Of a stretch of DNA of 64,000 nt, positions 1,100 to 61,731 are shown in pieces; within the stretch, counting starts at the first letter, position 1; each line of letters opens with the position of its first letter. A program made the translations under genes and the position numbers. Under the pieces are notes generated by a model, which was not told the DNA's origin, made no database searches, and saw only the letters and a list, made by a program, of their open reading frames with translations. Source of the DNA: Mobula birostris (taxonomy: Eukaryota). The DNA lies in assembly GCF_030028105.1 (NCBI RefSeq), contig NC_092387.1, positions 50,973,590 through 51,037,589 of the forward strand, read 5' to 3'.

Positions 1100-3340
1100 A
1101 TTTTTCAAGTCCAGCACAACGTCGAAGTCTTCTTCTGCCATCTTTGTGTCAATGGCCATTTCTTTAGGTAGGACTCGTCAAAACAAATTGAGAATGCTTT
1201 CTTCAACCTGGTTCTCCCCCTCTGTTCTATTATTCTGTGTTCACCTACATATTGCTATAACCCACGTAACACTGCACTTACTCACTAACGTCCTTCTCTG
1301 GAGTTATTGCACTTCACCACTATGGACCAATCCAATATTGTCTTCAAAGGTATAGCCCTAATGAGAAGACTGGAATGAATATGGACAAAAATGCCACTGT
1401 TTGATGATACTGAACACAAACTTGTGAGGATCAGTGTCATCCTATAAGTTATTGTCTCTCAGACAGTTAATATCACCCAATTCCCTCTTATGCTGTCATG
1501 AAAGTTTCAACCCTGAACACCCCAATCATGAACATCCCATTTCCAACTCCTCCAAAAGTTGCACTGCTTAGTAAGCCTGCTGTTTCAATGTTCTTGATCC
1601 ACGGTAATTTCTCTGACCCCCGACTGTTCTCTCATCCATCTGACATCTCCTGTCATTTTGATAGCTTTCAGACGCTCATTTTCACCCTAGACATTCAGTC
1701 CCTCTACATCACCCTCCATTACAAGGATGGTCTTAAAGCCCTCCAACCCTTTCTTGGACAGATGCTAACCATGACCATCCTCTTTAACCTTCATGGACTT
1801 ACAGTCATCACCTTTACATTATTAATTGCCTCCAAATCAAAAGGTATGAATAAAGAAACCTGCAGGAGTACATACTATGCTGTCTCCTTGTTGGATGTGA
1901 AGAACAATCCTACTTGGGATTCCTTCCTCAGCTCATTTTCTGGTACAGCGATGGTCTTGATGCTGCTTCTTGCATTCATACCGAGCTCCAAAATGTCCTT
2001 AGCTTTGTTACCATGATCTCACTTTCACATGGTCCATCTCTCTTTCCTTTTCCTTAAAATAGGTGGATAGGTTAGCAACAAACTACTAGCAAAAGCCCAG
2101 AGATTCCCATCACTACCTTCACTACAGCACCTAAAAGATCCCACTTCATTTACCTAGTTTCTCTGCTGACCACACTTTCCACAGAGCTTCCAAAATGTTT
2201 TCTTTGTTCCTTCATTATGTCATTCCATTCACCATGGTTGACTGGGCATTTGTCTACATATGTTCCATCACCCACATTTCAGCATTCACCCCCTTCTCCC
2301 TCTCTGAGTGAGAACAGTGTTTCCCTTGTGCTCCCCTTCTACCGCAATCTGCTCCTTAACCCTCTATAATCAGGAAGATACCTTTCTACAATTTCCATCA
2401 CATTAAATGTGATATTTGGCACACTTTACTCTCCCATTTCAGCATTAAATAACAGTTCCATCTACGACTCTCTGGTCTCTTTTACAACTTTGACATCACT
2501 CTGGCTCTTTTTGATGGCACTTTCCAATGAAACTGCAGGAGATGCCAAACATCTCTCACTTCCACACCTCCCACCCCACAATCTAGCGAGCCAAACATTC
2601 CTAGGTGAAGCAGCAAATCATTCATACTTCTTACAAATCACATGCTTTCTATGTTGTCTCCTCTACACTGGACAAACCAAGTGTTGACTGGGCGACTGCT
2701 TTGCAAATCACCTCTGCTCAGTCCACAAGATTGATCCTGAGATTCTAGTTGTCTCTCATTTTACTTCTTCGTCATAGTGCTTGCCACTCTGACCTCTCTG
2801 TCTTCGGTTTCCTAAACCATTTCAACAAAGGGCAAAATAAACACAAGGAAAATCATTTGATCTCCTATTTATGTACCCTTGGGATTCAACAATGAAGTCA
2901 ACACTTCAGATAACCAGCCTTTGCAAATGGTATCATAACTGGTCATTAATCTGCAAAGTTAAATCAGGTTTCATCCCTCCACTCATGCTGTGCCTGGCTG
3001 ATGGACATTTCCAACACCAACTTTATCAGATTTCCAGCAACTGCAGTGTTTTGCTTCTCATAGTTCCGGCAATGTTATTCCATCCCCCCTCCCATACCAC
3101 ATCTCTCTTCATTCATCTATTTATATCTCCTCCAGACAGATCATCTATAATTAACAAATCTTCACCACCCATCTCCCAGCCAGCACCATTGCTACTTTCT
3201 TGATTTCTGTTTTATCCCTTTTCCCTTCTCTCCACTCCTCCTCATTTTCCAGGTTCTGATGAAAGGTCACAACTTGAAACATTAAGATTGTTTCCCTTGT
3301 CACAGACTTGCTGAGAATAGTAGAACTGATGATCTGCATC
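1100..3340 (+). mobile_element. Old degenerate Neptune-type Penelope-like element
   Basis: ORF 1498-2016 contains FTLDIQSLYITLHYKDGLKALQPFL, matching MDVQSLYTSIPHPEGLKALRYFL of the younger copy at 47465. Decayed endonuclease region at about 2600-2900. Hammerhead remnant CTGATGA (3256-3262)..GAAA (3276-3279). Confidence 0.7.
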
Positions 3341-5399: not shown

Positions 5400-6560
5400 T
5401 ATAAGTACGGATGCAACGTGGCTAGGTTCCATTTGGATGATTAAGAGTTCATCAATTCTGAACATCTCTGATTTAATGCGTGGAGACGAGAAGTGGGAAG
5501 AGCTTTATGGTGCCGAAGATGTGGAAAGCGGCGGGGTTGGGCTCAAGTTCCAAATAGGCTCTGCAGAGTACGTGCACTTTCCTACATCGCTTGGGGTCAG
5601 AAGGCGAGAGCAGCACTTATGGGGGAGAGAAAGAGTTGCCACGTATTCTCCCTCCTCCTTCCCCCTCCCCACCCCAACACGATCCATGCTAAGAAGCAGC
5701 AAATATCTAACGCGGGGGGGGGGGTAGGGGTGGCCGAATTACACAGACTCCCAGAGTAGTTAAAAGTACACGAAAGTTAAAATTACTGTTTGATTGCCAC
5801 CAATACTATAGCCACCTTTAATGATCATATCAACAAGTTGGATGCTTTATTTCTGCCGTTAAAAGACGGTAAAATGTTTGTGTACTTTGTTCATTAAACC
5901 AAGAAAAAAATAGTTCCCCGAAAATGTTAGAGCCAAGACAATCACGACACTCCAATAATCCATTTTTTAAAATTGTGGGACGACGTTATTCGTCCTTTAT
6001 CGGACATTTAGAACGATCGTGCTAGAACATGCGGTGCTAAAGACGAGTAATTTGACGTGCAAAGACCAAACAAACACATAAAACAATAAAGTACTAAAAA
6101 ACCAAAAATCACGCCCGCCGCTCCGAGCAAGGCCGAAGTCAAAGGACAGCGAGTAATCCACGGGCGCTTGGATAGGACGCCAAATGATAATCAAATCATG
6201 GTGAGAGCTGGAGAGATGGGGGGACGGAGGGTCGGGTTAGGGAGAGGGAAGGGGCAGAGGAGAAAAGTTTCTCGATATTTACCTGTTGAACGGCCGACGT
6301 GTTGCGCAGCGGACTGGGTGCCGGGGGTACGAGAGGCGAGCGGGGATGGAGCACACACACACACACAGCTCTGCCTGAGTGTACGGGATGGGAGTTACTC
6401 AGTCGGTCTAGCCGTTAACTCTTTCACGTACATCACAATTTTTATGCCGCGTGGGGGAGGGGGGAGGAGGTTAAAATAAGATTAATGGAAATGCAAACGC
6501 GTAAATTTGATGTGTCGTTCACAGAATCTCGAATCCGAACAGTTTTCTGCAATCCACAAA
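5400..6560 (-). promoter_or_regulatory. CpG-rich promoter and first-intron region with clustered RCGTG (HRE) motifs; candidate P4HA1 promoter
   Basis: High CpG density. CATAAAAA on the minus strand at 6446-6439. TACGTG/CACGTA at 5569, 5640 and 6425; ACGTG at 5416, 6055 and 6297. Gene identity inferred only from the P4HA1-NUDT13 head-to-head arrangement known in human. Confidence 0.55.
6283..6415 (-). other. Probable non-coding first exon of a minus-strand gene
   Basis: Strong donor CAG|GTAAAT (GT at 6282-6281) about 160 nt downstream of the TATA-like box, inside the CpG island. TSS approximate. Confidence 0.5.
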
Positions 6561-7334
6561 CAAGATTTCTGGCTGATTTTCATTAGGTGTTAGTGCAGCT
6601 GTGAGATCCCAAGATAGTCTGACCAGTCTGGTGTATTTAACTTCTGTATCATTCATTACGTGTTAAACACTGGATAATTTTCAAAGGGATCTGATGAAAA
6701 TAGACTGACGTCCTTATCTGATCTTGAATGACTTGCCAGGTCAGGTGGGCAATTAAAGGTCAACTGGAGTCACATACTCAGATACATTAATAGTAAGTTG
6801 AGACAGAACAACATGAAAGCTTCATGGCTATTATTATTACTTACCTTTTATATCACATTTAATAACAATTTAAATTATCTATCTAACATGGTGGTGAATT
6901 TCTATAGATTAGTCCAAGGCACTGGAAAATGAATCAGTTTGTCACTATACTATCATACTCCTCCAGCTCCTCCCCTAAGTTATTAGATTTCACTCAATTA
7001 AAAGTTGATCATATTATGTAAATTGATAATCCAAAGTAGAACCGACCAAGTTGCTGCCATCCACTACACGTATGTGGTCTCCAGATGAGACCATTACAAT
7101 AATCCAATCTTTTTCCAGAATGCTCAAAGGATGTATTCTCTGGACTAACATAATTAGAAACATGTCCTCTGGCTGTTAACGCTCTCTTGGTGTGGCACTT
7201 ACCTGAACAAGTCATGAAATGCAGGGGTCTTTTAAAATCAAGTGTTTCTTACAGTCAAGAGTTCAGACAGACAAGACAAAAAGCAGAACTGAGGCTACAA
7301 ATGAAGAGATAGCTAAACTCAAGATTACATAAGC

Positions 7335-54419: not shown

Positions 54420-54599
54420 ATTGAGCTCAACCACTCTGAGCTTGAGGATGCCCGCTGGTTCGATGCTGCAGAGATAGAGGAACCTTTAAAGCAGAAGCAG
54501 GTACCAAGCAAGAAAGAAATGGGTGAGATTGCGTTCTGGATCCCACCGCCCCAGGCTTTAGCACATCATCTAATCAAAGAATGGATGCAAAGGCACTAG
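54420..54599 (+). CDS. NUDT13: NUDT13 final coding exon
   Basis: IELNHSELEDARWF...FWIPPPQALAHHLIKEWMQRH*. Total CDS is 1011 nt (336 aa) and in frame across all exons. Confidence 0.95.
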   Translation: MELNHSELEDARWFDAAEIEEPLKQKQVPSKKEMGEIAFWIPPPQALAHHLIKEWMQRH

Positions 54600-58551: not shown

Positions 58552-59784
58552 AGCTTAATCATAGGATGATTTATAATGACCAATTAACACCATATTCTTA
58601 TTCATTTACAACAGGTGGTGGGTGCTGGCAAAATATTTAAAATAAATATGTTTAATAAAGATGTAAAATAAGAATATTTAAAACAAAATATTTAAAGATA
58701 AAAATAAAATAAAGAGCTAAACTATGAAGTTTGTACTTATTAGGAAAGTTAGAACAGACTTGGTTTATTTTCTCCTTTTAAAGGAGACTCCTGAAATGTT
58801 AAATGAGAAGAAATTGACAGGCTAGTTATAAATCAGTAGCTTTAACCTCAGCAAAACACCAACTATTTGAGGGACAGTATAAAATTTCATTTTGAAAGGC
58901 ACCTTGATCAAATGCAGCATGGATTTTCTAAGAACAGAATTTCCAGCTCTTCAATTTTTTGAAGGGTGAAGATGTGAATTGGAAGGTTGATGAGTGCAGT
59001 ATATTTGATGTAGTCTTTGTGGATTTTAGCAAGGCATTAGATAAGATGTCCAGGTGTAAAAAAAACAAACTAAAACCCAATGTGATTCAAACAAGATTAG
59101 ATAGAAGTTGGCTCAGTGATAGGAAACAAAGCAAAGATGACAATGAGGATATTTTTACCACTAGGAGATTATTACTATTGGGGCTCCACAAAGAGCTGTA
59201 TCAATCCCTTGCTTTTGTAGTATAAATAATTTAGACTGAAATGAAGAGGACATGATAAAGAAATTTACACAAGGTACAAAATCTGGTTTTGAGAAGAAAA
59301 GCTTTATCCACAACAAGATATGATGGTCTGGTCAATTGGACAGAAAACTGGTGTGGAGTTCAATCTAAAAGTATGGGAAGTAATACATTTTCGACAAAGC
59401 AAGAGAATACACAAAAAATGGAGAATACAGAGAGGTGTGAAGAATAGAAAGACCTCGGAGTGTATGAAAGAGATCATTAAAAATTGGATAAATTATTAGC
59501 AAAAGCATAGCATATAAGAGCAGAGATTATGCTAGAGTTTATACAATACTAATTGAACCATAATTTGAGTATTGCAAATACTTATAGTCATTGCATTTCA
59601 AGAATGATGCAAAATGTAGAAGACAGAAATAGAGTAGATATTTGAGAATACTGCAATGATGGAGAAATTGTGGCTGTGAGGAGATGAAACTATGAGATCT
59701 GGTCCAAAGTGATGAAGGATGTGGTTGCATTGGAGAGAGCATGGAGGACCTTCACCAGGATGTTGCCTGGATTGGAAGATGCTA

Positions 59785-60038
59785 ATCTTTTTATTCTTAA
59801 ACCCATTGTTCCTACTAGGGCGTAGGCTGCTAACAGCAGCTCACCAGAGTCCTGGGGCTGTTTCACAAGTTGTCTCTAAGTGTAGCCTATTTTAAGATTC
59901 TTCCTCTTCCAAGGACAAAGTCTTTGGAGCTTCTGCTGGCGTCTCTGCATTTCTATTTTTTTTCAGGATGGCATTGCCAGCCCTATGCCTAACCCTTCTC
60001 CTATTGCAGCCAGGCTTGGGGCCATCCATGGCAGAGCT
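59785..60038 (-). mobile_element. Bipartite non-autonomous RTE element with a 5' twister-ribozyme-like motif
   Basis: 5' agctctgccatggatggccccaagcctggctgcaataggagaagggttaggcatagggctggcaatgccatcctgaaaaa; 3' end gctgctgttagcagcctacgccctagtaggaacaatgggtttaag is typical of RTE; nested in a CR1. Confidence 0.75.
59988..60038 (-). ncRNA. Degenerate twister ribozyme (type P1)
   Basis: AG-CUCU-GCC-AUG-GAUGG-CCCC-AAG-CCUGG-CUGCAAUA-GGAG-AAGGG compared with the twister pattern AA-P2-GCC-NNN-GCCGG-UCCC-AAG-CCCGG-..-P2'-GAGGG. Confidence 0.65.
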
Positions 60039-60899
60039 GATTCCAGTAAAGAGGTGAAATGTGATAGCCTGAGCTTGTTTTCCTCGAGTAAAGAAGGCAG
60101 AAGAATGACCTGATAGAGAAACATAAAATCATAGGAGGTATGGGGTAGATAATTAGAAACTTTTCCTCGTGATAAGGTATTGAAAACAAGAGGTAGAGCA
60201 TCAACGTGATAGGAAGGAATTTTAATCAGGATTTGATGGGGAAGTAGTTTGCACAGATGATGGTTGATATCTGGAAGTCATTGCTGAAGAAAGCTTAGAT
60301 GGATGCCTAAATATACAAGGCATGGGAGGGTTTGGATCTTAGGCAGGTTAATGGGATTAACATAGTCATAGATGGTCAACAGGGCTTGCTTCCGGACTCT
60401 CCTCAATACCATAGAACTCTATGGCTCTTGACATGCGAACAATAGATCACATGCAGGATGGTGGGGTTAAGCTGAGTACTGTATCACTCCTTTGGCCAGC
60501 ACAAACCAAATGGGCCTTTAATTTTATAAGATGATTTTATAACCTGATTCAGTTTTTTTAAAATTAAGCAATAATTTGAAATCAAAACACGATATTTCTA
60601 TTCATTTTGAGTATATCTGGCTTAAGGACCCTGTTTAAAACAAACACCCAGAAATCGAGTAGAGAGAAAAAATTAATATATTTGAGATTAATGTGAAAAT
60701 GTGGGACTTGCTATCTAAAGGAGACAAATTGTATGGAAGAATTTGACAGGCATACACGCAGAGAAGTAGTGACCTGAGTTTATGCAAGGAAAGATTGGAA
60801 GAAGGTTGAAAGGAGAATAAACGGTGCTGGGTTGATTGTGCAGAATGACCTGTTTCTATGCTGTTCAGTTTATAAAATTACTCTGATGTACAATTGTAA

Positions 60900-61731
60900 G
60901 TTCCACCAAGAGGACCACAACCTTGTCGTGGTTTGGAGGCTTGTGTGCCTCAATGACCCGGAGAGCTATGTCAGCTGGAGTCAGGGCTTTATGCTTTGAC
61001 CCTTGGTAGGGTCGCCCATGCCAAAAGGTCAAAATATTCGTAAGGCCAGTGATGTTGTAGGGATGGAACTGGACTGTTTGACGGTGGTGTCTGAAAAGAG
61101 GACGCTGTCCAAGTTGCATGTCATCTTGGACAATGTCTCCCATCCACTACATAATGGACTGGTTGGGTACAGGAGTACATTCAGCCAGAGACTCATTCCA
61201 CCCAGATGCAACACTGAGTGTCATAGGAAGTCATTTCTGCCTGTGGCCATCAAACTTTACAACTCCTCCCTTGGAGGGTCAGACACCCTGAGCCAATAGG
61301 CTGGTCCTGGACATTTCCTGGCATAATTTACATATTACTATTTAATTATTTATGGTTTATTACTATTTAATTATTTATGGTGCAACTGTAACGAAAACCA
61401 ATTTCCCTCGGGATCAATAAAGTATGACTATGATTATAACTATGACTATAGAGGACAGACTAAGAGTGGTCCACCGGTCCTCCAGGTTTGGGGGTCCATC
61501 TTAGGGCTAACAACCCTGACTGGTAAAACAAAATCGTTACGGAAACAGCAATGAAGAATTCTTCTACATCTGAGTGCGACGGTATTCCTGAGTATCCACC
61601 TGGGACTTGCATGACTGACAGTAGTGAAGACCGAGAGGAAGCTACTGACACGATGAAGGAAGCCCTGAACACCGCCAGAAATGAAGGACCTTCATTGCTG
61701 CCCTAAACGTCGGTGGCATAACTGTCAGTAA
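60900..61731 (+). mobile_element. Non-autonomous RTE (Expander/BovB-like ends) with a nested Rex1/Babar fragment (about 61034-61449)
   Basis: 5' accacaaccttgtcgtggtttggaggcttgtgtgcctcaatgac; ggtcctccagg..gggctaacaaccc motif; agtaagta tail; TSD gtacaattgYaa at 60888-60899 and 61732-61743. Nested ORF DNVSHPLH..CNTECHRKSFLPVAIKLYN. Confidence 0.8.

Follow-up and report, generated by a model that had tools for sequence, protein, structure and literature searches.

In the sections of PMC8501958 on the Perere-3 T-variants of Schistosoma mansoni, a type-P1 twister stands at the 5' end of an RTE LINE that starts at AA, cleavage leaves a 5'-AA end, and the target-site duplication (TSD) supplies the 5' strand of the P1 helix. 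The R2 SIDEs of Drosophila, as presented in the parts of PMC3414825 that describe them, join a 5' ribozyme to the 3' end of a LINE, are released from a co-transcript and rely on the protein of their parent. Additionally, bipartite RTEs made of just the 5' and 3' RTE ends comprise RTE-N1/N2_Lch of the coelacanth (262–286 nt), RTESINE1/2, MAR4, WALLSI3 and Bov-A (PMC5786205). The portions of that paper on these elements cite self-cleaving ribozymes only generally (Ruminski 2011) and leave open why RTE, Ingi and R2 spawn bipartite mini-LINEs; the word "twister" does not occur in the paper. The locus studied here lies in the window, by which we mean the whole 64,000-nucleotide stretch of the Mobula birostris genome that was analysed. 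Like the Perere-3 T-variants, its family carries a predicted type-P1 twister at the 5' end, starts at AA, continues with the same following sequence and belongs to the same RTE lineage (71–73% amino acid identity in the RT half); like the bipartite RTEs, it keeps only two RTE ends, at a length similar to that of the coelacanth elements. We propose, with a probability of roughly 0.8, that the locus is a decayed, internally deleted RTE of about 250 nt with a twister-like head, that copies of its family start at the predicted cut site, and that the ribozyme likely freed the element RNA from host transcripts (Table 1).

Table 1. Element, predicted ribozyme parts and insertion site in the window; Osa denotes the rice Osa-1-4 twister.
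Feature	Position in window	Strand	Basis or remark
Decayed bipartite non-autonomous RTE copy	60038-59787	-	
Element start, predicted post-cleavage A	60038	-	
Predicted minimal type-P1 twister core, decayed, +1 to +46; in order: L1 5' strand, P2, T2 strand, C-G pair with 3-nt loop replacing P3, P4, L4, 8-nt linker, P2', general-base position, T1 strand	59993..60038	-	Copy alignments; Osa-1-4 numbering from mutant list
A>G at +2 (second A of L1; Osa A8 equivalent)	60037	-	A in 23/30 core-selected copies
U>C at +18 (Osa U24 equivalent)	60021	-	T in 24/28 BLAST-set copies
G>A at +42 (general-base G; Osa G45 equivalent)	59997	-	G in 28/30 aligned copies
Predicted P1 3' strand; 5' partner would derive from host flank	59989..59992	-	Rfam alignment
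Remaining 5' UTR piece up to parent base 145: hairpin, A-run, conserved stretch	59894..59988	-	
3' piece: parent 3052-3155, last ~33 ORF codons and terminus	59797..59893	-	74% to parent majority
Decayed (AAG)n-type tail	59787..59796	-	
Candidate 3' copy of 9-bp TSD	59778..59786	-	5' copy at 60047-60039; 6/9 bases match, not significant alone
Older repeat fragment, insertion target; presumably CR1-like, from its translated motif	59650..59777, resumes 60039-60330	+	

A search of the 4.0-Gb genome with the 254 bases of the window copy returned 1,757 candidates, and the 40 that were scored are 72–75% identical to it over nearly the full length. When 30 scored copies are aligned together with their flanks, homology begins abruptly at the column for 60038, with A in 28 of the 30, and the DNA upstream is unrelated. 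The original prediction had quoted a minus-strand sequence running down from 60038, with an A at 59997; both lie exactly where it placed them. It had read this sequence as a twister relic at the 5' end of the element, and the Rfam results bear out that reading for the family and not for the window copy itself. Specifically, window positions 59000-61000 give no twister match at E≤10, whereas a search of the genome with the twister-P1 model (RF03160) at E≤0.001 gives six matches of 39–42.6 bits, all six of which are heads of this family; none of 14 control genomes gives an RF03160 match. The family heads match locally along the whole model (E of 1e-6 to 1e-5) and remain 25–28 bits short of the gathering cut-off of 67.2, the best reaching 42.6 bits. 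The optional P3 helix of the model is absent from the alignment, and a single C-G pair closes a 3-nt loop in its place. Because P3-less heads fall below the Rfam cut-off, vertebrate twisters are probably undercounted.

As had been anticipated, the family majority restores the conserved nucleotides of the twister core (L1 AA, L2 GC, L4, the general-base G, A and GGG) and pairs P2, P4 and both pseudoknots, with an A-G mismatch at the first P4 position across the family and a linker of 8 nt between P4 and P2'. Among the 17 distinct natural loci in which the core is intact by our own criteria, counts by sample are 13/29, 7/30 and 1/28, the three samples overlapping and the first two being core-selected. 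The architecture is that of Osa-1-4, a minimal twister of rice that is P3-less as well, and the Osa-1-4 positions tolerating no change (G13, G30, A46 and G48) are all present in the family majority (PMC5113685). The ray family differs from Osa-1-4 in two replaced P2 pairs, an A for C20 and a linker of 8 rather than 5 nt (PMC5113685). In the matrix row of PMC5113685 for this position, which was read by order without column labels, A at C20 has an RA of about 0.86 and appears tolerated; in the parts of PMC5113685 and PMC11662667 that deal with these helices, P1 is dispensable and flaws in P1 and P4 are tolerated. Apart from P3 and the linker, the family core agrees with that of the S. mansoni T-variants in Table 1 of PMC8501958. 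Covariation among the copies is of no use here, their differences being mostly CpG decay. Single-strand folding of three copies, with a tool that cannot predict pseudoknots, misses the twister and performs no better than on shuffled sequences (z of 0.24–1.32). One locus (L031) was considered as a covarying subfamily and dismissed, its P4 changes being explained by CpG decay on both strands. Between +44 and +71, two pairing partners are available to the C-run of the downstream hairpin, the G-run immediately preceding it and the G-run of the T1 pseudoknot, and this alternative pairing might act as a folding switch for the ribozyme. Taken together, these comparisons identify the first 46 nt of the family as a predicted minimal, P3-less type-P1 twister.

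The window copy still pairs at 4/4, 3/3, 3/3 and 2/2 positions of P2, P4 and the two pseudoknots when G-U is counted, including wobbles in P2 and P4. Its departures from the conserved core are at A+2, U+18 and G+42, all three of which have changed. The general-base column is also mostly G in other contigs of the family from four related organisms. The original prediction had held the copy to be probably dead through the general-base G>A and CpG-type decay in P4; death remains probable, and the published measurements place its cause elsewhere than in the general-base change alone. In the relevant data of PMC11662667, a general-base G>A still leaves a cleaved fraction of 0.54, compared with 0.76 without it, and changes at twister A2 remove nearly all activity. 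In the starts of the corresponding rows of PMC5113685, the Osa-1-4 double mutants A8G/G45A and A8G/U24C stand at 0.09 and 0.10. Since the single G>A is only partly damaging in print, we do not put the loss down to it alone; the combination of three changes, A>G at 60037, U>C at 60021 and G>A at 59997, has probably inactivated the copy. Of 85 short copies it has diverged furthest (20% versus a median of 13%), and it is likely a defunct relic showing no hint of function.

The position of the 5' boundary was examined in two samples chosen independently of the 5' end. In 30 copies chosen solely on bases 16-46, A occupies +1 in 25 and +2 in 23 and C occupies +3 in 27, whereas position -1 is mixed (T 12, A 9, G 6, C 3). 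Among 30 copies chosen on parent bases 129-156, homology reaches to within 4 nt of +1 in 19 and to within 13 nt in four more; the remaining seven start at parent base 20 or later, two from base 20 and five without the ribozyme, and none of the 30 has upstream sequence in common with the others. The predicted pile-up of 5' ends at the A of 60038 thus holds in samples not selected for it, and so does the proposed start at the post-cleavage A with the upstream P1 strand missing, as homology begins there and the DNA before it is random. TSDs with at least 8 of 10 matching flank positions are found in 25 of 77 both-ended copies, versus 2.7% of shuffled pairs, and with at least 7 of 10 in 49 of 77, versus 16%. 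Copies of the family also carry microsatellite tails. At positions not used for choosing the diagonal, TSD identity is 0.76, 0.60 and 0.60 for -3 to -1, stands at 0.52 at +1 (0.30 in the control), and drops by +2/+3 to reach 0.12 at +3. For RTEs, the passage of PMC6007223 on target-primed reverse transcription gives TSDs of 7–15 bp. Pairing between the upstream flanks and the P1 3' strand does not exceed chance (1.86 versus 1.88 pairs, n=84), which is expected where the 5' strand is host DNA. In four copies (L037, L046, L052 and L061), the TSD takes in the first A or AA of the element, possibly reflecting the use of microhomology at the 5' junction. Together, these alignments indicate that copies begin at the predicted twister cut site, with TSDs reaching up to it.

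The suspected derivation from an RTE was confirmed by finding, in the same genome, a parent RTE with the same head. The parent was traced through a DUF6451 search of the genome, which gave RTE fragments of which 3 of 15 share the 3' end of the short element, and then from one such fragment, which led to 100 candidates. At the 3' end, a short copy (L048) and a long copy (L071) are 91% identical over 104 nt. Among 19 long loci examined, 16 of them extended ones chosen mostly for far upstream reach, ten retain the 5' UTR, and eight of these ten are in the +1 register at their 5' end and carry the same twister; two parent copies (L123 and L126) have clear TSDs whose last position is -1. The parent is about 3.15 kb long, with a single APE+RT ORF running to the 3' end (parent base 3150), so that an autonomous-type RTE has both ends in common with the short element. 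Window copy positions 60031-59894 correspond to parent 8-145 with 80% identity and are fused directly to parent 3052-3155 (59893-59797), and the head of the short element maps to parent base 1. The element had been described as lacking an ORF, which does not hold, as its 3' ~105 nt correspond to the final ~33 codons of the parent ORF. The RTE-type 3' end that had been noted is real, although the homologous end lies at 59797 and only a short tail follows it to 59787. The label "SINE-like" also has to be given up: none of six loci has a tRNA in the head, no tRNA-, 5S- or 7SL-type Rfam match was found, and both ends derive from the parent, which makes the element an internally deleted LINE and not a SINE.

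All translated parent copies are broken; they lie 13–17% from their own majority, with one (L083) at 24%. Owing to frameshifts, a Pfam search of individual reading frames from two parent copies recovered DUF6451 alone, in 2 of 12 frames, and the domain content is therefore taken from tblastn. Its domain set (APE, RT and DUF6451), together with the RT similarity, is that of the Perere-3/Sr3-like RTE lineage. The RT half is 79–80% identical to RTEs of Littorina and Batillaria and 71–73% to those of Schistosoma, and the parent majority (loci L118-L133 and L081-L083) is 80% identical over 138 amino acids to a cyprinid RTE. All 36 named protein matches are mollusc, cyprinid or Schistosoma RTE-type proteins, and in a tree the parent falls outside the Schistosoma clade with no firm placement among the mollusc rows. 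By these similarities the parent appears nearer to marine gastropod and cyprinid RTEs than to those of Schistosoma, in keeping with the horizontal spread already described for Perere-3/Sr3 (PMC13155389); we claim no novelty for a horizontal transfer of the parent. RTE fragments at G000:C38:14.8-17.3 Mb and C5:3.8-4.3 Mb have equal scores and a spacing of ~130-170 kb, pointing to probable large tandem segmental arrays.

The 31-nt core pattern has 1,148 matches in the genome at up to two mismatches, 63 of them exact, and a reversed-pattern control has none. A binomial fit puts the number of heads at ~6,300-6,600 and calibration on parent heads (3 of 10 match) at ~3,800, so that the genome is estimated to hold roughly 4,000–6,500 copies. 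Long 3' ends are far fewer, a 27-nt pattern confined to them giving 70 matches versus the 1,148 heads; likewise, of the 30 copies chosen on parent 129-156, 25 are short, one continues into the ORF and four have no 3' piece that could be found. Bar individual decayed copies, all short copies retain ~140 nt of the 5' end and 70 nt of the 3' end. Junctions were scored in 71 short copies, six interrupted copies being excluded: 24 share the window type, 13 a second and eight a third, and the rest fall into several others, giving at least eight classes, counts that rest on 16 splits of our own choosing in samples biased to the junction of the window copy. A G directly follows the terminal TAA in 35 of 45 short copies versus 3 of 25 parent copies (p=1e-7), which favours amplification of short masters. 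An A at +16 was considered as a parent-specific mark and rejected, being present in 12 of 28 copies of an unbiased short set. With a median of 13% from its majority, the family is an old one undergoing neutral decay. Two loci (L002/L003, at G000:C13:30136681 and 30138088) have identical flanks and opposite orientations at a distance of 1.4 kb, which marks a local inverted duplication.

Since the head matches a minimal twister and the copies start at its predicted cut site, the ribozyme likely excised the element RNA. In the mechanism we propose, a host read-through transcript would enter a copy, and the twister would fold, with the host flank giving the dispensable P1 5' strand, and cut before +1. 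The product would be a unit-length RNA with a 5'-OH that needs no promoter of its own. The endonuclease/reverse transcriptase of the parent would then recognise the retained 3' end, and insertion would proceed by target-primed reverse transcription. Several deletion derivatives may have arisen at different junctions, some of which multiplied as masters and came to outnumber the parent.

An alternative concerns the multiplication of the short copies, namely that they never multiplied themselves and each arose as a one-off jump of the reverse transcriptase from the 3' end to the 5' UTR on parent RNA, with the twister acting on parent RNA only. Tail types do not co-segregate with junction types, which keeps this alternative alive; it would also suit the many junction classes, to which the copies chosen on parent 129-156 add further ones, and the similar age of short and long copies (13% versus 13–17%). 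However, nucleotide-exact junctions recur in 24 and 13 of the 71 copies, and short copies are distinct from the sampled parent copies at both the terminal base and position 84; one-off products of a single RNA should lack such a difference, unless it goes back to an unsampled parent variant. On balance we regard one-off deletion as unlikely. A different challenge concerns the 5' boundary itself, which an internal promoter at +1 could set, the twister being a passenger inherited from the parent. There is precedent in the HDV-like heads of trypanosome L1Tc/NARTc, which are reported to act as promoters as well. Yet the boundary falls exactly on the predicted scissile position, just as it does in Perere-3, whose cleavage was mapped, the source elements kept an intact core, and the head is not of tRNA type; we therefore hold a promoter-set boundary to be less probable still.

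The sub-threshold Rfam scores and the lack of a match in the window copy could also be read as a chance twister resemblance in the GC-rich head of a repeat. Such a coincidence is extremely improbable given matches at E of 1e-6 to 1e-5 that span the whole model, the near identity to the assayed T-variants in an element of the same RTE lineage, and the empty reversed-pattern controls. Going beyond release by a twister-like head as the preferred reading, one may speculate that twister release from host transcripts alone brought a promoterless 250-nt retroposon to thousands of copies in rays, that Perere-3-like RTEs can exchange their ribozyme as a module, and that some of the at least 17 intact heads still cut host RNAs running through them; we offer this wider picture as tentative, and think it somewhat more apt to fail than to hold.

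A second RTE family in the same genome carries a different head. It is represented by L084:3300-3520 on the minus strand (G000:C11:136090799-136091059) and L165-L181, with 20 head matches, is less diverged, and is 57–61% identical at the amino acid level to a Littorina RTE. It shares the hairpin and A-run of the twister family, and the conserved stretch in 59894..59988, behind a different head of ~80 nt with its own sharp 5' boundary. This second head folds into four stems and has no ribozyme match in Rfam, and a full HDV-like fold could not be fitted to it by hand; its stem followed by UAA presumably resembles HDV-like RTE ribozymes. A different head before the same hairpin in one genome suggests head exchange, and hence that the ribozyme heads of these RTEs may be an exchangeable module.

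The insertion in the window lies in an older repeat, and contigs of this host repeat bridge both flanks of the element with 23–30 letters in between. The insertion (window 59500-60350) is common to two or more related organisms. A single contig from organism B covers all of 59500-60350 with 10 differences, one contig of organism D spans the 3' junction with 25 differences in 341, and loose contig ends accumulate at 60036 in the three related-organism runs giving such ends. The twister-headed family is found in all four related organisms compared, and one short-copy locus (L048) is present in eight organisms. The last coding exon of NUDT13 lies at window 54420-54599 (+) and is 93% identical to that of Hypanus sabinus and 64–77% to those of sharks, skate and electric ray, which marks the host as a ray; the element lies ~5.2 kb beyond the NUDT13 stop codon, in antisense orientation.

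The original prediction knew of no description of such a family, and this stands in part: the combination was not found in print, whereas teleost twisters with the same downstream sequence had already been listed. Specifically, the supplement and text of PMC8501958, as far as they bear on vertebrates, list twisters from teleosts and snakes, of which some are followed by the same sequence as here; Rhincodon and Callorhinchus have no matches in the supplement as consulted, and "non-autonomous" occurs only once in the text as consulted, in the introduction. Aegilops tauschii twisters in the same supplement share their first bases after random flanks, like the head of a retroposon. Scleropages and Sinocyclocheilus appear both in Table 2 of PMC13155389 and among the vertebrate twisters of the PMC8501958 supplement. 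The main text of PMC13155389 has no occurrence of twister, ribozyme, shark or Chondrichthyes, and its preprint does not mention ribozymes either; the paper describes a spread of Perere-3/Sr3-like elements in metazoans by horizontal transfer that concerns the lineage of our parent. A search of published papers found no description of a twister-headed non-autonomous RTE, and the 1,948 twisters assayed in PMC11662667 might include ray sequences; the search also found no paper joining the twister ribozyme and sharks. The parts are thus known singly, as the twister on Perere-3, the R2 SIDEs and the bipartite RTEs, and for their combination we found no paper.

By the accounts in those sources, the ray family departs from each of these systems in its own way. 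Unlike in S. mansoni Perere-3, all that remains of P3 is one pair and a 3-nt loop, the linker is 8 rather than 5 nt, and the carriers are mostly non-autonomous elements of ~250 nt rather than an RTE LINE (PMC8501958). The R2 SIDEs are HDV-like, of the R2 clade, rDNA-specific and rare, whereas the ray family is twister-headed, of the RTE clade, dispersed and present in thousands of copies (PMC3414825). For the bipartite RTEs, a 5' ribozyme that makes a promoter unnecessary would favour bipartite mini-LINEs, a possible answer to the question left open in the sections consulted of PMC5786205, and the spread of junctions would map the minimum needed in cis for RTE mobilisation to ~140 nt of the 5' end and 70 nt of the 3' end. 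If our reading is true, the one described eukaryotic role of the twister, 5' processing of Perere-3 in a blood fluke, extends to a vertebrate and to non-autonomous elements.
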